Positions 6,144 to 61,800 of a stretch of 64,000 nucleotides of DNA are shown in pieces (within the stretch, counting starts at the first letter, position 1; every line of letters begins with the position of its first letter). The stretch is from Octopus vulgaris (Eukaryota). The notes under the pieces are model-generated. The model had not been told where the DNA came from and ran no database searches. It saw only the letters and a program-made list of their open reading frames with translations. The position numbers and the translations under genes are program-made. The stretch lies in assembly GCA_951406725.2 (NCBI GenBank), contig OX597843.1, forward strand, positions 4,774,001 through 4,838,000, in the 5' to 3' direction.

Positions 6144-6399
6144 CCCTAACTGTGACAGAATATGATGCGTGTGTGTGTGTGTGTGTGTGGCACAGAATGT
6201 ATAATATAAACCTGCACACTTGAAAAGTCAATGTTCTCGTTTAATGTTACTTCCCCCACCTGTCCCACACGCACCTTTGCTGGACAGGTGTCTCAATGTG
6301 CACAACACCTGCACACACACACACACACAAAGCGTGTGCATATGCGTATCGTTTACCTTTTACTGGATTCAATCATTAGACTGCGGCTATGCTGGGGCA

Positions 6400-7540
6400 T
6401 AGGTCTTTACCTCAATGAGGCCAAGGCTGAATATATAAACAAGTGCCTGTCCAACAGTGATTGCATCATCCATACTCTCAACAATACGCCCTTAAATATG
6501 GTTTCTGATTACAAATATCTTGGGTCATACATATCATCATCTGGAAAAGATTTTCTAACTAGAAAGGGTATGGCCTGGTCAGCCTGTAATGACATGCATA
6601 AGATCTGGTCATCAAATCTAAGTAGAGACTTCAAACTTGAAATCTTCAAAGCCACAGTCGAACCAATTCTACTCTATGGCTCAGAAACCTGGACGTTATC
6701 AAAGAAGCTTGAGAGGCGGTTGGATGGAACCTACACTCGCCTCCTTATGAGAGCTCAAAATCTCTCGTGGAAGCGCCATCCAACCAAAATGCAAATATAT
6801 GGGAAACTACCACCTGTGTCATCTCTTGTGAAAGGTAGGAGAGTCCAGTTTGCTGGACATTGTTGTAGAGCTGAAAAAGAGGTAATTTCTACTCTTCTCC
6901 TCTGGAAGCCATCTACTCGCAATACCAGAGGGCGCACACTCTTCGAGAGGTGATTGGATGGAACCTACACTCGCCTCCTTATGAGAGCTCAAAATCTCTC
7001 GTGGAAGCGCCATCCAACCAAAATGCAAATATATGGAAAACTACCACCTGTGTCATCTCTTGTGAAAGGTAGGAGAGTCCAGTTTGCTGGACATTGTTGT
7101 AGAGCTGAAAACAAGGTAATTTCTACTCTTCTCCTCTGGAAGCCATCTACTCGCAATACCAGAGGGCGCACACTCTTCGAGAGGTGATTGGATGGAACCT
7201 ACACTCGCCTCCTTATGAGAGCTCAAAATCTCTCGTGGAAGCGCCATCCAACCAAAATGCAAATATATGGGAAACTACCACCTGTGTCATCTCTTGTGAA
7301 AGGTAGGAGAGTCAAGTTTGCTGGACATTGTTGTAGAGCTGAAAAAGAGGTAATTTCTCCTCTTCTCCTCTGGAAGCCATCTACTCGCAATACCAGAGGG
7401 CGCACACTCTCCTACCCTGATGTAATCTCCAGGGATACAGGCATCCAGCAACAGGACCTCCGTAATGCCATGATGGACCGTGAAGTCTGGCGTAGCATGG
7501 TAAATTCCATTGTCTTGACCACGGTCGAACAATGATGATG
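6400..7540 (+). mobile_element. RTE-type LINE 3' end with an internal 234-bp triplication
   Basis: YKYLGS...AWSACNDMHKIW...VEPILLYGSETWTL...FAGHC...DREVWR motifs of the non-LTR RT C-terminus; short (ATG)n tail at 7531-7540. Confidence 0.88.
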
Positions 7541-12123: not shown

Positions 12124-13930
12124 AACATTGGTAAAATCACAGCTTGGCGAAGAATTCGACTGGAAATTCGAATCTGGAGGCACAAAAGTAGCAGCGTTGT
12201 ACTCCAATTTGCTACTGGAACCAGTTTGGTTAGCTTTGCTGCCATCTTGAGGTACGCAGTGGTCAGTTACATCACAGTTCGCAGTATTATCTACAAGGTT
12301 GCTTTGTACCATCTCCCCCTCTTCTTCTTCTTGTTCTTCTTCTTCTGGTAATGTAGTCCCAGAATGTCCTGCATCGGGGGCTTCTTCACCAACGCTGCTA
12401 ATGTTGCTAGCCACAGCGGAATGGTCGGTCTTGCTCAACGTTTCATCGTGGCCATCACCCTTGATGTCATTGTTGTCGCGGCCACCACTCTTGCTGTCAT
12501 TGTTACCGCCGCTCTGAAGCTGCTGCTCGTGCGTGATTCCGTCCATATTCTGATCGGAACTGCCAAACGATGAAGAGTCACCAGCACCTACGTCTCTGCC
12601 ACAAAGCTCGACCGATGTGCCACTCTCCTTAGAATTTTCGCTGGCAGTTTCTGTTGTGCTTGTCAGAAGAAGGCTTTCCGAGATCAGACTTTCACCCTTG
12701 GATGAATCCACCGCTCTTAAGTGATCCGCATCATCACTTTCAGGCCCTTTCAAATCACCCTCAGCCCCAGATTCTTCAGATTGGCACTGCACTGTTTCCA
12801 AATCACCCTCAGCCCCAGATTCTTCAGATCGGCACTGGACTGTCTCAGTTTCAAATTGCGTGGAATTTACCGGAAGAGATGAATATGAGGTGCTGCTTGA
12901 AGATTTAGTTACAGAATTCTCGGCTGCTGGGTCTCCCTTCTTTTGTTGGCGAAACGTCGGGGTCTGCGATAAACTCGACAGGTAGACATCGCCACTGCCG
13001 TCCGACTGGCCACCTTCGGACATCGATATGTCCCGGCTGTCATCATCTCCGGCGACTGGATCGCTCTCCATGCTCTCCGTTAAGACCTCCTTTTCAGATT
13101 CTGTCTCTGGGGGAGTGATGGATTTTGTTTCATGAAACAGCTCTTTAGCGCTTAGGAGCAAATTGTCCGTCGTCTCTCGCTTGGGGGTGCTTGTTTGTGT
13201 CGTCTCCGTGGACCCTCGGAGGCTTTCCAGCTCCCTTTTCAGTTTGCTGTCGTTTAGGGAATTCGACGCGAACACCGCAGATATGGCGTCCATGGACTTC
13301 ACCTGAGAGTACGAATCGACGTTCATCTTGTCTCCCTGCTTGCACAGGGTCTTGCCGACCTCGGTGACCTGTGCCGGAGAGTCAGAGTCAATGATGATGT
13401 CACCAATCTGGACAATTGAAGAGTCGCCCATGAACTCAGCAGAGCTGCTGCTGACCCGTTGAGAGTCATCCACAGCATTGACCTGTACATCCGACCCCAG
13501 AAGGTCATCGTCATCACCATCATAATCATCATCGTTATGATCGCTTGTATTTCTGTCAAACCCTGAGCTTCCTGACAGGCCCTGCGTTCCACTCAGTTCA
13601 GAGTCCTGTTGTTTGCTTCCACTGCGGACTTCATCGAAGGTGACCCACGTGTCCCCAACCCCAGCTGCAGCATCGGCAGCAGTGCTAAGGGTGTCTAATT
13701 TTGATGCTGACACACACGAGGCCTCCTGTCGACCCAACTCGCATTCCTGCGCCTCCGCTTTTTCTTCTTCTTCATCTTTGGTTTTACTTTCACTATGAGA
13801 CTCTGCACCAACATCTCCATGGCAACTGTGGCTGCTACTGGAAACCAACTCTTTCTCCTCCTCCTCCTCTGCTTCCACCTCCTCCTCAAGGTTCTTACCT
13901 AAGAGGACAAAAAAGGGATGGGATAAAAAA

Positions 13931-13967
<37 letters not shown>

Positions 13968-14736
13968 CAGATAGATGGATGGATGGATAGATGGATGGAT
14001 GGATAGATAGATAGATAGTACAAGACGAAACTAATAATGCTGGTTCTAAATCTTTGGCGCCGTCCCCTCTATTTGTGCATTTCGGACTGACGCCGGCGCC
14101 ACTGTGCAGCATTGCAAGAATCGCAGCTGTATCAGATTCCACAATGGCGTCGCTAGAACGGTCACTTTGGAGCAAGTGTCCACCAGACAAATGCTGTCCA
14201 AAGGCAGAATCTGTCGGATTCCGATCCGTGATTTTGCTGCCGCCGGCAACACCGATATTACCAATGCCATCGTTGCCAGGCAATGCGTCTTCGAGATCAT
14301 AGCGTTTACCAGGAAGCTGGTAGCATAAGGCCGTGTCGTCGACAGCTGCCGCTATGCAGGTGTCGACGTGCTGTCCGGGGGAAACATCTCTCCGACCGTT
14401 CAGCTGTCGGATTTCCTTTGATTTCAATTTGGAACTCCGATATGAAGAAGTTGTCAGAGAGTTTGATGCATTAATTGAGATTTCTTCAAAGTGATGGAGC
14501 GAAGTAACACCGTCCTCGCCTTCTTCATTCTTACGTTTGTCGCTGACGAGAGTTTCCTGGTTCAAATCGCTCTCGTTTCCGGCCAGGAGGTCACCGTGCA
14601 GGGACAAGCCCTCATCTGTCGAATCCTTTCTTGGAAGTCTTTTCTTCTTTTTCTTGTCCCACAACCACAGCAAACCAAAGATTGCAGTTAGGGTAGGGAC
14701 ACTGATTACTGCTAGAACGAAGCGGAAATTTGTCAT
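12124..14736 (-). CDS. AKAP1: AKAP1/spoonbill-like protein, first coding exon: N-terminal mitochondrial outer-membrane signal-anchor plus long acidic/Ser-rich disordered region
   Basis: Non-repetitive ORF starting MTNFRFVLAVISVPTLTAIFGLLWLWDKKKKKR (hydrophobic helix with P..G..W then a Lys run, like the AKAP1 N-terminus). Upstream acceptor tttcttttctcttttcag|A puts the exon start at 14761 (25 nt 5'UTR). Phase-0 donor GTT|GTAAGT after 12124. 13899-14021 may be spliced out (see findings). Confidence 0.85.
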
Positions 14737-14857
14737 TGGGATCAGTCAATAGCAGCAAAATCTGAAAAGAGAAAAGAAACAAAAATTAATTATGAATTCA
14801 TCTAAAAGAAAAAAAAAACAAAAAATACATTGGTTTCTTAAATGGATCACTTTAATC

Positions 14858-15745
14858 AGGCGCAGGTGTGGCTGTGTGGTAAGTAGCTTGCTTACCAACC
14901 ACATGGTTCTGGTTTCAGTCCCACTGCATGGCATCTTGGGCAAGTGTCTTCTACTATAGCCTCGGGCCGACCAAATCCTTGCAAGTGGATTTGGTAGAAG
15001 GAAACTGAAAGAAGCCTGTCGTATATATATATATATATATATATATATAGGCGCAGGAGTGGCTGTGTGGTAAGTAGCTTGCTTACCAACCACATGGTTC
15101 TGGGTTCAGTCCCACTGCATGGCATCTTGGGCAAGTGTCTTCTACTATAGCCTCGGGCCGACCAAAGCCTTGTGAGTGGATTTGGTAGACGGAAACTGAA
15201 AGAAGCCTGTCGTATATATATATATATATATATATATAAGGAACAATAGGACTCAGAACATGAGTGTATAAATATATGCAGGAGTGGCTGTGTGGTAAGT
15301 AGCTTGCTAACCAACCACATGGTTCCGGGTTCAGTCCCACTGCGTGGCACCATGGGCAAGTGTCTTCTACTATAGCCTCGGGCCGACCAATGCCTTGTGA
15401 GTGGATTTGGTAGACGGAAACTGAAAGAAGCCTGTTGTATATATGTGTGTGTGTTTGTGTGCCTGTGTTTGTCCCCGATGCTGGTGTGTTTACGTCCCCG
15501 TCATTTACGGTCGGCAAAAAGAGACCGATAGAATAAGTACTGTGTGTGTTTGTGTGCCTGTGTTTGTCCCCGATGCTGGTGTGTTTACGTCGAGTACCCG
15601 TCATTTAGCGGTTCGGCAAAAAGAGACCGATAGAATAAGTACTGGGCTTACAAAGAATAAGTCCCGGGGTCGATTTGCTCGACTAAAGGCGGTGCTCCAG
15701 CATGGCCGCAGTCAACTGACTGAAACAAGTAACAGAGTAAAGAGT
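14858..15745 (+). repeat. Tandem array of three family-A SINE 5' halves plus a 3' half
   Basis: Heads at ~14858, 15049, 15277 separated by (TA)n. Confidence 0.85.
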
Positions 15746-16137
15746 AACCCTTTCGTTACCATACTATGTTGAATCAGTCCGTCTTTGTTTCAATTAATTC
15801 TGAAAATAATGAAGAATTTAATAAAATAACTAATTAATTAATTTGGTGTTTTGGAACATTAATCACACGCTAGCACTCTTCCGTATCATCTGGTACCTAT
15901 TCTCTTCTTCACCATGGCTAGGTATGAACTAAGGTGATGTAGAATATAGTGTTTTATCAGAGAGACATTGTGATGCGAGATAAATCTCCTCCTGGATAAA
16001 GCAGCAGTCCATCACATGTTAACACTCTCCCAGATCATCTAGTACCTATTCTCTCCCTCACCACAGCTAGGTATGAACTGAGGTCATGTAGAATATAGTG
16101 TTGTGCCACAGACAATGTAAAAAAAAAAAAATTAAAA

Positions 16138-16378
16138 TGCTCCCTTTTAAAGCCTAGCCAGGCTCATGGGCCCGGTTTCCCGGTTCCTATGGCGTATGTG
16201 TTCCCCAGCTGGATGGGACGCCAGTCCATCGCAGAGTTACTCATTTTTGCCAGCTGAGTGGACTGGAGAAACGTGAAATGAAGTGTTTTGCTCAAGAACA
16301 CAACGTGTCGCCCGGTCCAGGAATCGAAACCACAATCTTACGATCATGATGCTGACACCCTAACCACTAAGCCACGAC
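16138..16378 (-). mobile_element. tRNA-derived SINE (family D)
   Basis: Minus head cgtggcttagtggttagggtg...gtttcgattcctggaccggg; related head at ~23690-23790. Confidence 0.7.
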
Positions 16379-17535
16379 CCCCTCTACTCACAATGTATAT
16401 ATATATATATATGTATATATATGTATATGTGTGTGTTTGTGTGTCTGTGTTTGTCCCCCTAGCATTGCTTGACAACCGATGCTGGTGTGTTTACGTCCCC
16501 GTAACTTAGCGGTTCGGCAAATGAGACCGATAGAATAAGTACTGGGCTTACAAAAAGAATAAGTCCCGGGGTCGAGTTGCTCGATTAAAGGCGGTGCTCC
16601 AGCATGGCCGCAGTCAAATGACTGAAACAAGTAAAAGAGAGAAAGAAAGAAAAGAGAGCATCAATGTCCACCATGGGAACAATTGAGGTCAGTCACATTG
16701 CTAGAAATAACAGCCAGATCTCCAAATCGCAGCAAATTCTCTCTTAAATAAGAAACACAGCAAATAATGCCAGAAAGAAAGAACAGATGAAGTGGTCATG
16801 GCTGGACTATATTTGATCATAGGGCGGCGAGCTGGCAGAGTCGTTAGCACGCCGGGCGAAATGCTTAGCGGTATTTCGTCTGTCGTTACGTTCTGAGTTC
16901 AAATTCCGCCGAGGTCGACTTTGCCTTTCATCCTTTCGGGGTCGATAAATAAAGTACCAGTTAAGCACTGGGGTCGATCTAATCGACTAAATCCCTTTGT
17001 CTGTCCTTGTTTGTCCCCCTCTGTGTTTAGCCCCTTGTGGACAATAAAGAAATAGGTATTTCGTCTGTCGTTACGTTCTGAGTTCAAATTCTGCCGAGGT
17101 CGACGTTGCCTTTCATCCTTTCGGGGTCGATAAATTAAGTACCAGTTTCGCACTGGGGTCGATGTAATCGACTTAATCCCTTTGTCTGTCCTTGTTTGTC
17201 CCCTCTGTGTTTAGCCCCTTGTGGATAGTAAAGAAATATATATTTGATCATAGGACTACTTAGAGCTGACTCGGGGTTAAACAACAAGCACAATCAGTCT
17301 TGCTAACCACTGCCAACCCCACCCAACGTCCACGAGACAAGGTCTTTGGTAGCTTGACCTGCTAGAAATAGCAGCCAAATCCTCAAATCCTCAAATCACA
17401 CCATACTGTCTTATCTGAGTATATAAACAAGAATGAGCCAATGATGGAGACCCCTGCATGGTAGCTAGACCTGCTAGAAATAACAGCCAAATATACACCA
17501 AGTTACACTTTACTGTCTTAATTATGCATATATTT

Positions 17536-17701
17536 AGGCGCAGGAGTGGCTGTGTGGTAAGTGGCTTGCTAACCAACCACATGGTTCCGGGTTCAGTCCC
17601 ACTGCGTGGCATCTTGGGCAAGTGTCTTCTGCTATAGCCTCGGGCCGACCAAAGCCTTGTGAGTGGATTTGGTAGACGGAAACTGAAAGAAGCCTGTCGT
17701 A

Positions 17702-17743
<42 letters not shown>

Positions 17744-17903
17744 CACAGGAGTGGATGTGTGGTAAGTAGCTTGCTAACCAACCACATGGTTCCGGATTCA
17801 GTCCCACTGCGTGGCATCTTGGGCAAGTGTCTTCTGCTATAGCCTCGGGCCGACCAAAGCCTTGTGAGTGGATTTGGTAGACGGAAACTGAAAGAAGCCC
17901 GTC

Positions 17904-17954
<51 letters not shown>

Positions 17955-18593
17955 CGCAGGAGTGGCTGTGTGGTAAGTAGCTTGCTAACCAACCACATGG
18001 TTCCGGGTTCAGTCCCACTGCGTGGCATCTTGGGCAAGTGTCTTCTGCTATAGCCCCGGACCGACCAAAGCCTTGTGAGTGGATTTGGTAGACGGAAACT
18101 GAAAGAAGCCTGTCGTATATATATGTATATATATATATATATAGGCACAGGAGTGGCTTTGTGGTAAGTAGCTTGCTTACCAACGACATGGTTCCGGGTT
18201 CAGTCCCACTGCGTGGCACCTTGGGCAATTGTCTTCTGCTATAGCCTCGGGTCGACCAAAGCCTTGTGAGTGGATTTGGTAGACGGAAACTGAAAGAAGC
18301 CCGTCGTATATATGTATATATATATATATAGGCACAGGAGTGGATGTGTGGTAAGTAGCTTGCTTACCAACCACATGGTTCCGGGTTCAGTCCCACTGAA
18401 GCCTGTCGTATATATGTATATATATATATATAGGCGCAGGAGTGGCTGTGTGGTAAGTAGCTTGTTTACCAACCACATGGTTCCGGGTTCAGTCCCACTG
18501 CATGGCACCTTGGGCAAGTGTCTTCTGCTATAGCCTCGGGCCGACCAAAGCCTTGTGAGTGGATTTGGTAGACGGAAACTGAAAGAAGCCCAT

Positions 18594-18630
<37 letters not shown>

Positions 18631-18845
18631 ATATGTTTGTGTGTCCGTGTTTGTCCCTCTATAGCATTGCTTGACAACCGATGCTGGTGTGTTTACGTCC
18701 CCGTAACATAGCGGTTCGGCAAAAGAGATCCGATAGAATAAGTACTGGGCTTACAAAAGAATAAGTCCCGGGGTCGATTTGCTCGACTAAAGGCGGTGCT
18801 CCAGCATGGCCGCAGTCAAATGACTGAAACAAGTAACAGAGATAA
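17536..18845 (+). repeat. Tandem array of six family-A SINE 5' halves ending in one 3' half
   Basis: Heads at ~17536, 17741, 17952, 18143, 18330, 18432; alternating ggcgcagg/ggcacagg variants. Confidence 0.88.
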
Positions 18846-19885
18846 CAGAGATATATGAGCCAATGAGGGAGACCTCTTGATATTAGCTAGGCCTAGGTGT
18901 AATAGCAGCCAAATCTCCCTCATATCATACCCTACAGTCTTATATACATATGAGCCAATGAGAGGGACTGCAGTAACGAGAGAGAGAGAGATATTGAGAG
19001 AGAGGGAGGGAGGGAGAAAGAGAAAGACAGGGCGGGAGGGAGAAAAAAGGAGAAAAACTCGTAGAGAGGGACAGACTGATAGAGAGAGGGAAGGGAGCAT
19101 AGAAATACAATGAGGAGAAGTGTGAGATGAACGGAAGAGAAGGAGACTTGGATCGTTTTTCAGATCACACCTTACTGGCTCGTACAGAGAGTCTACACAG
19201 TAGCTAGACCGAGAAATAGCAGCCAAATCTCCCTCTGATCACACCCTACTGTCTTATCTATGTATATATGTATGTATGAGCCAATGAGGAAGACCTCTGC
19301 ATAGTAACTAAATTTAGTAGAAATAGCAACCAAATCTCCCTCAAACCACACTGTCTTTTGTCTGAATATATGTATGTATGAGCCTATGAGGGAAGCCTCT
19401 ATACGTTAGCTAAACCTGGTAGAAATAGCAGCCAAATCTCCCCTCCAAATCACACCCTATGTCTTATCTAAGAGCCGATTAGAGAGACCTCTACATGGTA
19501 GCTAGACCTAGTAGAAATATTAGCTAAATCTCCTTCAAATCACACCCTACTGTCTTATCTAAGAGCCGATTAGAGAGACCTCTACATGGTAGCTAGACCT
19601 GGTAGAAATATTAGCTAAATCTCCCCTCAAATCACACCCTACTGTCTTATCTAAGAGCCGATTAGAGAGACCTCTACATGGTAGCTAGACCTGGAAGAAA
19701 TATTAGCTAAATCTCCCTCAAATCACACCCTAAGGTCTTACGTATGTATATAGATGTGAGTCAATGAGGGACAATTCTAAATGGTAGCTAGATTGGTAGA
19801 AATAGCAGTCAAATCTCCCTGAAATCACACTGTTTTGTCTTATGTATGTATATATATGGATACATGAGCCAACGAGGGAGACCTT
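18845..19885 (+). repeat. Diverged ~90-105 bp minisatellite (gaaatagcagccaaatctccctcaaatcacaccctactgtc...)
   Basis: About ten repeats, three nearly identical at 19440-19730; interrupted by a foreign segment at 18969-19154. Confidence 0.85.
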
Positions 19886-20524: not shown

Positions 20525-21500
20525 GAAAGAGTGGAGGGGGATGGGAGAGGGGGGGAAGCGAGGTGGGAGGGAGAGGAGATAGGAGGAGAGGGGAGAGAGA
20601 GAGAGACAAATGAGGAGGATGGTGGAGAGAGAGAGGGAGGAGCGAGGTGGGAGGGAGAGGAGATAGGAGGAGAGGGGAGAGAGAGAGACAAATGGGGGAG
20701 GATGGTGGAAAGAGAGAGGGGGGATATTTATGTGAAAGCCACAGGTCAGTAGGACTGGCGCCAATTCGGCCTGAGGTGAATAGTGCTGGTGGTGGGAGAG
20801 GGAGAGACACAGACACAGAGAGAGACAGAGGAAGGATGAATAGGGAGAGGGATTTATAAAGAGAGAGAGAGGGGACAGTGAGTTCTTGAGAGAGGGGGAA
20901 GAGGTAGAGGTGCAAAAAGATATATATATATATATATATGGAGAGAGAGAGAGACAGATAGAGATAGAGAGAGAGAGAAAGAGATAGATAGATAGAGAGA
21001 GAGAAAAAGACAGATAGATAGAGAGAGAGAAAGAGACAGATAGAGAGATAGAGAGAAAGAGACAGATAGATAGAGAGAGAGAAAGAGACAGATAGAGAGA
21101 GAGAGAGAGAGAGACAAGCAGATAGATAGGTAGACAAATAGACACTAGGGAGGAGGGAGAAATAGAGATACGGAAGATACAAAGAGAGTGAAAGCAGAGA
21201 AAGAGAGGGATATAGAGAATGAGAGATCGATAGAGAGAAGAGTGGAAGGCAGGAAGGTGAGGAGAGGGAGGAGGTTATTGAGAAAAGGAGAAAGAATGAA
21301 AGAGAAATGAAGAGAATGGGAGAAAGAGAGCGAGAAAGAAAAAGAGACTGAGGGGGAGAAAGAGAAAACGGAGTGAGGGAGAAAAAAGTGGGAGAAACAA
21401 AGAGGGAGAGATAGAAGAAGAAAACGAGAAGAAACACAGAGAGAGGGGGAGAAAGAGAGGAGAAAATAGAGAAAGAGGCAGGTAGGAGGAGGGTTAACAG
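20525..21500. repeat. Polypurine (GA-rich) low-complexity tract
   Basis: Seen directly. Confidence 0.9.
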
Positions 21501-21997
21501 TGAGAGGAACCAATAGCAATGAGGTGAGGAACTGGTTACAAAAAGCCGGTAGGAAAAGTGTCAACGGCTATAACGTTGAACGTGCGCATTACTACGTTAC
21601 TCTGTGTCTCCCCTGCCCTCTCTCTCTCTCTCTCTCTCTTTCCGAAAACGAAACCACAGCAACGTCCAGTCAGCTGATAGGCAAAGGTCACCTCGCTTCA
21701 ACATTTTGTAGTTGTTTTTGTTGTTGTTGTTTGGGTCCAAGTTAGGCCATGTTGGAGCAGCGCCCTGTGGACAAAGGAGCGCCGACCGTGACTGTTCCAG
21801 CCATTTGTCATTCGTGAAACATAATGTGATCCGGCGAATTCCATTGGAGTGTGGTATCGGGGGTGGTGGGATTTGGTTGCTATTTTCAGGAGATCCCGTG
21901 TCCATATAGTTTCGCCATTTGACCCCAACCCACCCTGTAGCAGATGGGGCGTGGAGTGAGTCGGTAAGGTAGAGAGATTAAAAATTAACAGGTGATG

Positions 21998-24814: not shown

Positions 24815-25585
24815 TGATGGTGGTTTAGTTGTTAGGGCATTCGGTTCACAATCGTAAGGTCACAAGTTCAATTCCTAGAGGTGCTTTGTGTCCTTGGGTC
24901 ACAACACTTTATTTCATATTGCCCCAGTTCACTAGGCTGGCAAAAATCAGTTCTACCTGTCATTCGAAAGGGCCAGCCATGTCACATTCTGTGTCACACT
25001 GAATCTCCCTGAGAACTAACAGTAAAGGTATGTGTGTCTGTGGAATACTCAACCACCTGCACGTTAATTTCACAAGAGGTTGTTCTGTTGATCGGATCAA
25101 GTGGAAAATTTGTTATTGCAACTGACAGGGTGTCAGTTTTTTGTAAAGACGCATGGCTTAGTGGTTAGGGCTTTCACCTCACAATCATAAGGCCGTGAGT
25201 TCAATTCTCACTGGCAAGACACCTTTTCATGTTGGTCCACTCTACTCAGCTAACAAAATTTGAGTTGTAGCAGTAATTCAAAAAAGAGCCAGCCCTTGTC
25301 CCATTCTGTGTTGTGCTGACTCTCCCTGGGAACTACATTAAGAGTAAGCATGCGTGAGGAGTACTCGGCCACTTGCACAGACCCTGTGGACAAAGGAGCG
25401 CCGACCGTGACTGTTCCAGTACTTGTCAATCATAGAACATAATGTGATCCGGCGAATTCCATTGGAGTGTGGTATGGGGTGGGATTTGGTTGCTATTTGT
25501 TATAGCCCTAGGCTATATTAATTCCACAAGCAGGCTGTTGGTTGATCAAATCAACTGTAACACTAGTTGTTGTAACCGACAGAAA
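24815..25585 (+). mobile_element. Two tandem diverged tRNA-SINE copies; the second is interrupted by a copied segment
   Basis: Heads at ~24815 and ~25150; bodies match the young SINE at 60500-60884. Confidence 0.7.
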
Positions 25586-27760
25586 GCTAGGCCAGGCCGT
25601 TATTCAACATACTTTTTCCCAGACTGGCATGGCTGGATAGTTTGTCAGGGAACTAGCAGGCTGAAGGGCTGCATCAAGCAACAATATCATCTTTGACAAG
25701 GTTTCTATGGCTGGATACCCTTCTTAATACAAACCACTTTACAGAGTGTAGTGGGTACTTTTTATGTGGCACCAGTGAGGTTGTCATGTAATTTGCAAGA
25801 CAGAAAAGGACAGAGAAAAGAAAAAGCTCCCACTACAAAGAGGGAGTATTTGAAAGAGGAACTTGGAGGTGAGCGGCTGTATGAAAACCAGTGTTGGTTT
25901 GTTTACATCCCTGAGAATTAGCAGTTCAGCATTAAGGGACGAATAGTAAAAGTACTCTCTTTACTCTTTTACTTGTTTCAGTCATTTGATTGTGGCCATG
26001 CTGGAGCACAGCCTTTAGTCGAGCAAATCAGCCCCAGGTCTCATTCTGTGTAAGCCTAGTACTTATTCTATTGGTTTCTTTTGCGGAACCACTAAGTTAC
26101 GGGGATGTAAACACACCAGCATCGATTGTCAAGTGATGTTGGGGGTGCAAACACAGACACACACACACATATACATATATACGACAGGCTTCTTTCAGTT
26201 TCCATCTACCAAATCCACTCACAGAAGACACTCAAGGTGCCACGCAGTGGGAATGAACCCAGAACCATGTGGTTGATAAGCAGGCTACTTACCACACAGC
26301 CACTCCTAAACCTTTAAAAGAAAAGATATATAAATACTGAGGTAGATTTGTTCAGCTATACCCTTCAAAGTGGTGCCCCAGCATGGCCTCAAATACATAT
26401 ACATGCATGTGACAGGCTTGTCAGTTTCCTTCTAATAAATCCACTCACAAAGCTTCGGTCAGCCTAGGGCTATAACAGAAGACACTTGCCCGAGGTGCCA
26501 CGCAGTGGGATTGAACCCAAAACCCATGTGGTTGCAAGCAAGTTTATTAACCACACAACTATGCCTACACCAGTAAAATATTAAGAAAAAAATAATTAAA
26601 ATTTTGTTTATTCCTCATTAACAACTAATGCATTATGATAAATTTAAAACAATATCTAAATTCTTGATACTAAATTAATTAGCTGATTAAGCAATGTTAA
26701 TTAAACCACACTGTTAATTGTACCCTACAGTGTGTCTATTTTTAGCTATATTTCCCTGTTGATACTAATTAAATTTTCTCTTTAATTAAAACTTTAACAT
26801 TGGATATTGTTTATAATTACCTTTTAACAATAGATATTTAAATCATAGCTAGGTGCAGGAGTGGCTGTGTGGTAAGTAGCTTGTTTACCAACCACATGGT
26901 TCCGGGTTCAGTCCCACTGCGTGGCATCTTGGGCAAGTGTCTTCTGCTATAGCCTCGGGCCGACCAAAGCCTTGTGAGTGGATTTGGTAGACGGAAACTG
27001 AAAGAAGCCCGTCATATATATGTATATATATATATATGCGTGTGTGTGTTTGTGTGTCTGTGTTTGTCCCCCTAGCATTGCTTGACAACCGATGCTGTCC
27101 CAGTTACTTAGCGGTTCGGCAAAAAGAGACCGATAAAATAAGTACTGGGCTTACAAAAAGAATAAGTCCCGGGGTCGAGTTGCTCAGCTAAAGGCGGTGC
27201 TCCAGCATGGCCGCAGTCAAATGACTGGAACAAGTAAAAGAGTAAGAGAGACCTGCTGAAAATAGCAATGAAATCTCCCTCAAATCACACCTCACAGTTT
27301 TATCCTTGTATATATGTACAAACAAGACTTAGGTGGGTGTGATTTGAGAGAGATTTGGCTGCTATTTCTGTCTTATCGATGTATATATGTACGTATGAAC
27401 CAACGAGAGAGACCTCTGCATGTTGCATAATAGCTAGATTTAGTAGAAATAGCAGCGGTTCATGTATAGGAACTGCAGCAGCCCCTATTTCTATTCGGTA
27501 TAATCGATAACATTCAATATAACGAGCCCTTTTTTCTCTAATTCTTTCTTTATACTTGTATATTATATAATCCTTAAGTTTAATGTCAGCAGTTTATGGA
27601 AAAAATACAAAAATCTTTATATATGGAAGCGGGTCACTAAAGTGTAGTTATACCCATAACACTACAATATGGTGGCGAAATAGAAAGTTAACTCCCTTTA
27701 CGACCGGAGTTCAATTCTTGTCAAGGTCGACCGTCTTCTGGGGTCGATGAAAGGGAAGGT

Positions 27761-38746: not shown

Positions 38747-39024
38747 CAGATAGACAGACAGACAGATAGATAGACAGACAGATAGACAGACAGATAGACA
38801 TTTAGACAGACAGATAGACAGATAGATAGATAGACAGATAGATAGATAGATAGACAGATAGATAGATATGTTTCTTTATTAGCCACACAGGGCTGCACAC
38901 AGACAGGACAAAATTACAAGGTAGAGCTTTTCTTTTGGGGATAAAAAAAAAGGGGGTTTGGTTTTCGATCAAAAGAGATCGTAAAAGGAAAGAAAGAGGA
39001 CAAAAAAGGGGATGGGATAAAAAA

Positions 39025-39061
<37 letters not shown>

Positions 39062-39095
39062 CAGATAGATGGATGGATGGATAGATGGATGGATG

Positions 39096-39185
<90 letters not shown>

Positions 39186-39198
39186 AAGATAGATAGAT

Positions 39199-39285
<87 letters not shown>

Positions 39286-39310
39286 AAGATAGATAGATAG
39301 GTAGATAGAT
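38546..39310. repeat. (GATA/GACA/GGAT)n microsatellites flanking a probable retroelement 3' tail
   Basis: Seen directly; non-SSR spacer ttctttattagccacacagggctgcacac... at ~38870-39025. Confidence 0.85.
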
Positions 39311-39802
39311 GCGGATGCACACACACACACACACATATAGCTTCAGGGATGCAAACAGGAACAATAGGACTCAGAACATGAGTGTATAAATATATGCAGG
39401 AGTGGCTGTGTGGTAAGTAGCTTGCTAACCAACCACATGGTTCCGGGTTCAGTCCCACTGCGTGGCACCATGGGCAAGTGTCTTCTACTATAGCCTCGGG
39501 CCGACCAATGCCTTGTGAGTGGATTTGGTAGATGGAAACTGAAAGAAGCCTGTCGTATATATGTATATATATATATATATATATATGTGTATGTGTTTGT
39601 GTTTGTCCTCCTAGCATTGCTTGACAACCGATGCTGGTGTGTTTATGTCCCCGTCACTTAGCGGTTCGGCAAAAGAGACCGATAGAATAAGTACTGGGCT
39701 TACAAAAGAATAAGTCCTGGGGTCGATTTGCTCGACTAAAAAGGCGGTGCTCCAGCATGGCCGCAGTCAAATGACTGAAACAAGTAAAAGAGAGTAAAAA
39801 GA

Positions 39803-39840
<38 letters not shown>

Positions 39841-40956
39841 ATATTTAGCAGAAGCAACAGAGTGGATTCAAGGGCCCAAGACTTTCGTCCCTTATATATG
39901 AGTGAGAGCAGAAATTTCTTCCAAGCTCCACTTGGTCAGCTTCTGTGATAACTCCCCCCCCCGGGTTTCTGTCCCGTCCTCTCTCACTCTCTTTCTCTTC
40001 CTTTCTCTCTTTCGTGTCGTGCTTTAGAGAAGGTAAGAGGAAAGAGAAAGAAGAAAAGAGAGAAACGGAGAGTAAAGGGAAAGAAGGGGAGGAGGAGGAA
40101 AACGAGAACAAGAGGTAAAACTGAGCGAGAGGAGAGAAAAGAAAGAGTAAGAGAATAAAGAAAGAGATAGAGAAAGAGAGGGTAGAGTAGTTCCGAGGTG
40201 AATGCACGTGGGGTAAGCGTTGCTACCTTGAGTCATTCTGTGTGCAGTAACGAGAGAGAGAGGGATATTGAGAGAGAGGGAGGGAGGGAGAAAGAGAAAG
40301 GGGGCGAGTGAGGGAGAAAAAAGGGAGGAGAGGGAGATAGAGAGAAAAACTCGTAGAGAGGGACAGACTGATAGAGAGAGGGAAGGGAGCATAGAAATAC
40401 AATGAGGAGAAGTGTGAGATGAACGGAAGAGAAGGAGACTTGGATCTTTTTTTGTTTGTTTATTCGTTTTATTGTCTTTTTTTATTTTGTGACAAGATTT
40501 TCTTTGTTTTAATCACTCTTTACTCTTTCTCTCTCTTTTTACTTGTTTCAGTCATTTGACTGCGGCCACGCTGGAGCACCGCCTTTAGTCGAGCAACTCG
40601 ACCCCGGGACTCATTCTTTTTGTAAGCCCAGTACTTATTCTATCGGTCTCTTTTTGCCGAACCGCTAAGTGACGGGGACGAAAACACACCAGCATCGATT
40701 GTCAAGCAATACTAGGGAGACAAACACAGACACATACATATATACATATATATATACATATATATACATATATACGATGGGCTTCTTTCAGTTTCCGTCT
40801 ACCAAATCCACTCACAAGGCATTGGTCGGCCCGGGGCTATAGCAGAAGACACTTGCCCAAGATGCCACGCAGTGGGACTGAACCCGGAACCATGTGGTTG
40901 GTTAGCAAGCTACTTACCACACAACTTAGATCTGAAAACATCTATCTATCCATCTA

Positions 40957-41355: not shown

Positions 41356-42291
41356 ATGTGTATATATCATCATCATCATCATCATCATTGTCATCATTTA
41401 ACGTCCGCTTTCCATGCTAGCATAAGTTGGATGATTTCACTGAGGACTGGCGAACCAGATGGCTGCACCAGGCTCCAATCTTGCTCTGGCAGAATTTCTA
41501 CAGCTGGATGCCCTTCCTAACGCCAACCACTCCACGAGTGTAGTGGGTGCTTTTACCTGCCACCGGCACAAGGGCCAGTCTGGTAAGAAGAAATAAGGTA
41601 CTCAGAAGTCTGGATGGTTTTATATTTACATATTTTTATTAATATGTCACGTGTTTTTATAAATCATATATTAGCGCTTGCATCCACTTTAGTGGATTCT
41701 TCAGATTAATAAAAATCTGTAAATATAAAACCATCCAGATTTCTGAGTACCTTATTTCTTCAAATATATATATAGTACTGCCTGACTGGCCCCCATGCCG
41801 GTGGCACGTAAAAGCACCCATTAGACTCTCGGAGTGGTTGGCAATAGGAAGGGTATCCAGCTGTAGAAACTCTTCCAGATCAAGATTGGAACCTGGTGCA
41901 GCCATCTGGTTTGCCAGCCCTCAGTCAAATCGTCCAACCCATGCTAGCATGGAAAACGGACGTTAAACGATGATGGTGATGATGATGATGATGTATAAAA
42001 ATATATGTAAATATCTGTAAGTATAAATATCTACTGCATATGACAGTTTAAAAGTTTTGAATTAAATATTTAAAGCGCCTTATGATCGTTTCACAGAAGG
42101 GTTGTCCCTAAAATGAAATTCTATATTAATAAGCAGGAGTGGCTTTGTGGTAAGTAGCTTGTTTACCAACCACATGGTTCCGGGTTCAGTCCCACTGCGT
42201 GGCATCTTGGGCAAGTGTCTTCTACTATAGCCTCGGGCCGACCAAAGCCTTGTGAGTGGATTTGGTAGACGGAAACTGAAAGAAGCCCGTC

Positions 42292-42352
<61 letters not shown>

Positions 42353-42663: not shown

Positions 42664-42763
42664 NNNNNNNNNNNNNNNNNNNNNNNNNNNNNNNNNNNNN
42701 NNNNNNNNNNNNNNNNNNNNNNNNNNNNNNNNNNNNNNNNNNNNNNNNNNNNNNNNNNNNNNN
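42664..42763. other. Assembly gap (100 N)
   Basis: Run of exactly 100 N, a placeholder of unknown true size. Confidence 0.99.
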
Positions 42764-51152: not shown

Positions 51153-51265
51153 TCCATGTGCCAGAGTACGTAAATATATATATATGTATATCATCATCAT
51201 CATCATCGTCATCATTTAACGTCCGTTTACCATGCTGGCATGAGTTGGAATGTATGTATAGTGCG

Positions 51266-51340
<75 letters not shown>

Positions 51341-51450
51341 CGGGTTCAGTCCCACTGCGTAGCACCTTGAGCAAGTGTCTTCTACTACAGCCTCGGGCTG
51401 ACTAAATGTGAATGGATTTGGTAGACGGAAACTGAAAGAAGCCCGTCGTA

Positions 51451-51502
<52 letters not shown>

Positions 51503-51574
51503 CGCACTATACATACATTCCAACTCATGCCAGCATGGTAAACGGACGTTAAATGATGACGACGATGATGATGA

Positions 51575-52216: not shown

Positions 52217-52528
52217 ATAATTAGGGTTCAGCAAAGATTTGCTTTACCACATACCGAAGTTTAGAAATAGCAGCCAAAAAATCTTAGCTATACTTTCTAA
52301 TTTAAAAGGGGCTCCCAGAAAAACCAAAGTACTTGAAGACAATCCAGGCAGGGCAAAGGGAAAAAAAATAACGAAAATCAATCTATATATTGATTGCTTG
52401 GATAGTTTTCAAGTATTTTGGTTTTTCTAGGAACCCCTTTTAAAGTAGAAGGTATAGCTAAGATTTTTTGACTGCTATTTCTAAACTTCGTTATGTGGTA
52501 AAGCAAATCATTGCTGAACCCTAATTAT
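52217..52528. mobile_element. Fold-back element with ~130-bp inverted arms
   Basis: ataattagggttcagcaaagatttgctttaccacataccgaagtttagaaatagcagcc... / ...ctgctatttctaaacttcgttatgtggtaaagcaaatcattgctgaaccctaattat; related single arms at ~48165-48270 and ~57940-57990. Confidence 0.8.
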
Positions 52529-61361: not shown

Positions 61362-61800
61362 GTTATCGCCATACTAATATGGCATTCTTATAAAAATAAG
61401 AAAAAAGCTGTCCGCTTATTAGCTCCATGAGGCCATCGCCTTAAGTTAGCTATTTGATACACAAACTGTATCCATATAACCTTCGAACAATAAATAAAAC
61501 CATCGAACAGAGATTGTCGGAAGCGACACCTACTGGTTTGGCTACGCTGCATTGAAAAGGGGCAATACCCCGAAACGCGTCTGTAGCTGCCGGTCAAGTA
61601 GTGTGGAGCGACTGACCTCCCTTGTTCGAAGGTTATATGGATACAGTTTGTGTATCAAATAGCTAACTTAAGGCGATGGCCTCATGGAGCTAATAAGCGG
61701 ACAGCTTTTTTTTTCTTATTTTTATAAGAATGTGTAATATTTCGAACGCTCCGTGTCTTTTAGAAACTTTAGTTATATTTTAGTATGGCGATAACTATTA
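61357..61800. mobile_element. Penelope-like fold-back element with near-perfect ~108-bp arms
   Basis: 61383-61490 is the reverse complement of 61622-61732 (only an A-run length differs); 61357-61377 pairs with 61780-61800; (TA)n on both sides. Confidence 0.85.
61546..61587 (+). ncRNA. Minimal hammerhead ribozyme, U3-A8 variant
   Basis: gctgca-TTGAAAA-gggg(caata)cccc-GAAA-cgcg-TC-tgtagc: stem I 6 bp, stem II 4 bp, palindromic ACGCGT stem III. Confidence 0.65.

Follow-up and report, generated by a model that had tools for sequence, protein, structure and literature searches.

Three ordered patches with 5:1 spacing at the AKAP1 locus of an Octopus vulgaris assembly: a likely consensus artefact

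Among the described systems closest to the locus treated here, class 2 templated sequence insertion polymorphisms (TSIPs) are 73-414 bp long with a median of 191 bp, according to the accessible part of their description (PMC5110952), and TST jumps join pieces with a median of 183 bp taken from hotspots of 2-3 kb, as far as the available portion of that report goes (10.1101/835058). In the same portion, the pieces of TST jumps stand in tandem within rearrangement junctions that arise after bridge breakage. Templated insertions attributed to MMBIR, as presented in the accessible text (PMC8421209), are grouped with TST jumps as a close known system. On the computational side, HyPo, taken here as an example of such polishers rather than as the presumed program of this assembly, replaces small windows of a draft with the consensus of read pieces that have been cut out by alignment coordinates (10.1101/2019.12.19.882506). 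The locus lies in a stretch of 64,000 nucleotides of the O. vulgaris assembly GCA_951406725.2 (contig OX597843.1, positions 4,774,001 to 4,838,000, forward strand), referred to as the window, in which three patches match three donors further to the right. These patches are likely an error of consensus software made during assembly rather than the product of real DNA repair.

Three patches, their donors and their hosts

The features concerned are as follows, with positions counted from the first base of the window.

13901..14018, plus strand: patch 1 (recipient), a 118-bp copy of 38994-39112 within the large AKAP1 coding exon
15239..15414, plus strand: patch 2 (recipient), 39 unique bases followed by the same SINE head as in the donor
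18969..19154, plus strand: patch 3 (recipient), a 186-bp copy of 40243-40446 in a satellite unit
38994..39112, plus strand: donor 1, within a long (TAGA)n array
39357..39532, plus strand: donor 2, unique flank and SINE head
40243..40446, plus strand: donor 3, GA-rich
42664..42763, no strand: scaffold gap of 100 N, 2.2-3.7 kb rightward of the donor stretch
12124..14736, minus strand: large first coding exon of AKAP1, the next coding exon being at 496-302 and the KH and Tudor exons further left

An initial annotation of the window had described three collinear patches at these positions, and local alignments together with a two-copy k-mer plot confirm them. Strand and order are the same across the three pairs, with offsets of 25094, 24118, and 21274-21292, and the donors sit 21-25 kb away in cis within one 1.45-kb stretch. 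The DNA between the patches is unrelated to that between the donors, and the annotation was right that this is not a simple segmental duplication. It had also expected a genome-wide search to return two matches for each patch's unique part; exactly two were found for each in the 2.8-Gb genome, both within the window, which does not bear out the multi-copy repeats that it had named as a possible refutation. Two pattern searches for the unique parts gave 0 control matches. The patch pattern is present in the assembled sequence and is not due to chance. Within the donor stretch, where the annotation placed a candidate promoter, 39840-40060 is single-copy except for weak matches of 35-65 bp.

The local alignment of patch 1 with donor 1 is identical in 118 of 119 columns, the sole gap lying in a run of G, and patch 2 is an exact match to donor 2 over 176 bp. 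The local alignment of patch 3 with donor 3 shows, in its GA-rich part, a gap of 18 bp and a few changes, and in its complex part identity at 105 of 105 bases. All differences between patches and donors are thus confined to a homopolymer or to GA-rich tracts, and the complex parts of the three patches match their donors at 100% identity, so the unequal divergence noted earlier does not date the patches. The SINE head in patch 2 shows 0 differences from the donor 2 head, including a variant of 1.5% frequency, and no other of the 327 full-length SINE heads in 1.06 Mb comes within 2 differences of the latter. The right end of patch 2 falls somewhere in 15393-15414.

The hosts named by the annotation hold, namely the AKAP1 coding exon, a tandem SINE array, and a satellite of ~92-103 bp. 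Host lengths at patches 2 and 3 were taken from neighbouring repeat units rather than from other animals; on this footing, the unit with patch 2 has gained a net 36 bp over the 141 bp usual in the SINE array, and the satellite anchor distance is 209 in the unit with patch 3 versus 64 in most units, which implies that ~41 host bases were replaced there. SINE heads have been tandemly amplified via (TA)n spacers at 14858-15238 and 17528-18500, one tandem head carrying an internal deletion at a short repeat.

The exon that hosts patch 1 is a minus-strand open frame of 931 codons, its name coming from database sources, and KH and Tudor domains were detected in the gene. The window exceeds the O. 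sinensis protein, which reads SSCT-EDATESF-LGKNL at this point, by 31 residues, and in two more relatives the segment is as short as in O. sinensis. The short segment in three relatives places the donor on the right, in line with the right-to-left direction proposed earlier, and leaves the eroded ancestral duplication, another refutation named in advance, without support. Patch 1 replaces ~24 host bases with a net gain of 93 bp, or 31 codons in frame, and is a replacement rather than a clean insertion. The frame would be kept by chance in 1 of 3 cases, and the patch is free of stops in all three frames. Homology at the junctions of patch 1 is at most 1-2 bp, which means that no anchor guided the copying. 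Among public records for O. vulgaris, the proteins CAI9744284.1 and CAI9744285.1 and the UniRef entries of both contain the 31 extra hydrophobic AKAP1 residues, and no second copy of the AKAP1 exon or alternative haplotig was found in the whole assembly. On the minus strand, 14021-13899 has patch 1 flanked by GT and AG of the host, the patch supplying a pyrimidine tract, and may be read as a candidate 123-nt in-frame GT-AG intron; public annotation keeps it as coding.

Independent read data bear on the allele at patch 1. The AKAP1 exon was found in 20 of 24 listed runs, with 0.66-0.78 of its words per run, and the allele was checked in the contigs of four of the 24 (X3, X10, X1, and X9), of which X3 and X10 were read to 80% and 76% only. 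In all four, one contig each crosses from 13901 to 14024 with 29 letters instead of 122, a difference of 93 that matches the 31-residue gap relative to O. sinensis. Five of the 29 bridging letters are the host bases 14019-14023, leaving ~24 replaced bases. Contigs of X1 match the window exactly on either side (13619-13735 and 14115-14233) and cross the site unbroken in the ancestral form. No carrier of patch 1 is therefore present among the four runs examined, since each of them spans the site in the ancestral state. Variants are collapsed in Logan contigs, according to the accessible part of their description (10.1101/2024.07.30.605881), and contigs drop rare variants. None of the listed runs is marked as coming from the source animal, and the absence of patch 1 from the four thus also fits a private allele. 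X10 is labelled as organism A, yet it shares 17 of 17 listed differences in 13300-14750 with X9 (organism B), so that the four runs amount to about two lineages. At patch 3, no contig of X3, X10, X9, or X1 covers 19105-19144, the donor is uncovered too, and a repeat family overwhelms the flanks; depth-bin cover seems to end near 18968 and to restart near 19155, no listed contig bridges the interval, and this read-cover result is not counted as evidence.

The 5:1 geometry

The spacing of the patches follows that of the donors at a fixed ratio.

14019..15238, no strand: host gap 1, 1220 bp versus 244 bp in donor gap 39113-39356, ratio 5.000
15415..18968, no strand: host gap 2, 3554 bp versus 710 bp in donor gap 39533-40242, ratio 5.006

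Under edge shifts of up to 2 bp the first ratio stays within 4.97-5.00, and a 1-bp shift brings the second to exactly 5.000, its range across the uncertain end of patch 2 being 4.89-5.006. The same figure returns inside the patches with host and donor exchanged. Donor bases per replaced host base come to 4.76-5.09 in patch 1 and, by donor length, to 204/41 = 4.98 in patch 3 (range 4.86-5.10), where the left copy's own length gives 4.54 (range 4.4-4.65) and a right end extended by 6 bp gives 4.4-4.6. The net gain of 36 bp at patch 2 is compatible with 45 donor bases for 9 host bases without demanding it.

Under a log-uniform null of our own, equal gap ratios have a chance probability of 0.012 and equality at an integer one of 0.00045, and the in-patch ratios have chance probabilities of 0.024 (patch 1) and 0.029 (patch 3). 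Because the 5:1 rule emerged post hoc, once start-to-start ratios had been tried, these figures overstate the case somewhat; the start-to-start interpolation itself was rejected because its ratios, 3.7 and 4.2, are unequal. A stochastic (Poisson) idle pointer with a mean of 1/5 meets all four tolerances with p = 0.0012, and the step thus looks deterministic. Polymerase noise fits the ratios poorly. Of the 327 block pairs in 1.86 Mb, 0-4 fall into any one ratio bin of ±1.2%, and pairs at ratio 5 occur at the chance rate (2 + 2 of 327 in 1.864 Mb with 6 gaps, one being the present set). No second set of patches of the same kind was found in the 1.864 Mb surrounding the window, and no periodic matching of one base in five was detected within the gaps (0.22-0.28).

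A candidate fourth patch, 26868-27021 / 42146-42299, was rejected as lying 156 bp off the 5:1 line; its likeness is within that usual for young SINE heads, 52 of 205 of which have a neighbour at no more than 2 differences. Among other two-copy matches in 1.06 and 1.86 Mb, those opened from lists of 37 and 20 candidates were transposon copies, tandem duplications, or SINE pairs.

Origin of the patches

As biology, the patches are most likely not a real feature. One fixed 5:1 rule, together with the single age of the complex parts and the lack of patch 1 in the four runs, points to a single process, most likely a computational one. Software would naturally advance in deterministic steps, to which we know of no counterpart in DNA repair. 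In the reading favoured here, a single mis-registered read or read consensus from the right end of the contig would have been carried across the AKAP1 region in constant 5:1 steps, overwriting three small draft windows. Its course would be one path in the plane of host and donor, gaining 5 host bases for every donor base from one patch to the next and 5 donor bases for every host base within patches 1 and 3, and running 1:1 along the SINE head, where host and donor are truly homologous. The donor side would be written into the consensus wherever it is longer than or equal to the host side. Such a path, with slopes of 5, 1, and 1/5, would explain order, orientation, offsets, and sizes jointly, and stray reads from a contig end would be expected near a scaffold gap such as that 2.2-3.7 kb from the donor. 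Standard global alignment does not reproduce the path under any of seven schemes, and greedy embedding also fails; two of the seven do follow the SINE diagonal. This failure weighs against the artefact reading, as does the lack of a second example in 1.864 Mb.

Three observations count against an artefact and towards a real event, namely that the complex parts are free of the errors that a single noisy raw read would carry, that the AKAP1 reading frame is preserved, and that the same window holds an older local patch, 21763-21885 / 25382-25498, which is 89% identical and has exactly two matches genome-wide. Its right copy (25382-25498) seems to interrupt a repeat, and on sequence grounds the pair resembles a genuine templated insertion of older date, with its source at a distance of 3.6 kb, so that real local copying does appear to occur here.

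It is nevertheless unlikely that the three patches record one real and recent replication or repair event on one haplotype, private or rare, in which a nascent strand switched three times to the 1.45-kb stretch 21-25 kb off and returned each time in a manner resembling MMBIR or TST jumps. The patch sizes of 118-204 bp match those of templated insertions and TST jumps, and the small host deletions without target-site duplication are compatible with end joining. However, all four runs lack a carrier of patch 1, a 5:1 step held constant over 24, 41, 1220, and 3555 bp has no counterpart among known repair processes, and the patches here are separated by 1.2 and 3.6 kb of intact host, unlike TST insertions, which stand in tandem in one junction.

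In E. coli, the helicase slows by ~80% after uncoupling. It could be imagined that the patches are real and that, in a single replication accident, one nascent strand made three hops between co-directional forks separated by 21-25 kb, of which the idle one, with an uncoupled helicase, proceeded at one-fifth of the active fork's speed, but this is very improbable, and such precise ratios speak against it. Slowing of the helicase after uncoupling is described in the accessible part of the relevant report (PMC6525111).

Hardly credible, too, is the proposal of the initial annotation that copy-paste repair or gene conversion happened repeatedly and independently, drawing on a favoured donor that a chromatin loop perhaps kept close or that was present as RNA. 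A 1.45-kb donor used three times in one orientation and the larger number of differences in patch 3 would speak for it, but those differences are all in simple-sequence tracts, events that arose independently would not retain one order or arrive at equal gap ratios (p ~0.012), and patch 1 is in none of the four runs. The complex parts are of one age and the spacing follows 5:1, so that from the annotation's overall reading the two-copy state, the rejection of a duplication, and the right-to-left direction stand, and recurrent copying at different times falls. There is a negligible probability that a complete ancient duplication was worn down by deletions or that multi-copy repeats match by chance, because, although patch 2 is mostly SINE and patches 1 and 3 are of low complexity, the unique parts have exactly two genomic matches, near-100% identity excludes age, the intervening DNA is unrelated, and three relatives keep an intact short exon segment at patch 1, for which the two-copy state, the relatives, and the ancestral allele in four runs refute this reading.

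If the patches are indeed an artefact of consensus software, they are a warning, since public AKAP1 protein records then carry the error, and the fixed 5:1 spacing would be a cheap signature for screening long-read assemblies. If the junctions were confirmed in reads, the locus would document fork dynamics in a new way, through three switches at one constant ratio, and if fork-hopping were true, ratios of fork speed would be readable from germline DNA. As observations apart, 6210-7532 contains remnant frames resembling reverse transcriptase, with a 234-bp unit tripled at 97% identity, and short MITE-like palindromic elements with long inverted arms lie at 51206-51562, 52217-52528, 61401-61711, and 41587-41761.

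Comparison with known systems

The literature covered, mostly as titles and abstract openings and exclusive of subscription papers and supplements, holds no account of the locus or of an artefact with 5:1 patches. In the cancer bridges of templated insertions, copying ends in a return to the host, where a gap is left, as it is here; these bridges are somatic and read-supported, their templates typically lie on other chromosomes, and the accessible part of the report does not describe a fixed geometry (PMC7025897). TST jumps, as described in the available portion of their report, resemble the locus in that pieces of 118-204 bp come from one 1.45-kb stretch, compared with ~150-200 bp there, and in that one event is involved. 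In contrast to their tandem arrangement, each patch here returns to intact host, in order and at a fixed ratio, with 1220 and 3554 bp of host between patches, and the exon part is collinear with other runs.

A class 1 TSIP or retrotransposed copy would show a target-site duplication of at least 5 bp and a poly(A), neither of which is found at the junctions, where host bases have been lost. Class 2 TSIPs share with the patches their size, a microdeletion at the site (~24 bp at patch 1), and the lack of target-site duplication and poly(A), whereas the accessible part of their description has distant single donors in place of three ordered patches drawn from 21-25 kb in cis. Class 2 TSIPs are also read-supported germline polymorphisms; the four runs are without a carrier, in contigs that drop rare variants. 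HyPo differs in that the accessible text of its paper gives no 5:1 step and that its long-read pieces are filtered for similarity. It resembles the locus in that a wrong coordinate would bring nearby foreign sequence into a small window without any homology at the junctions.
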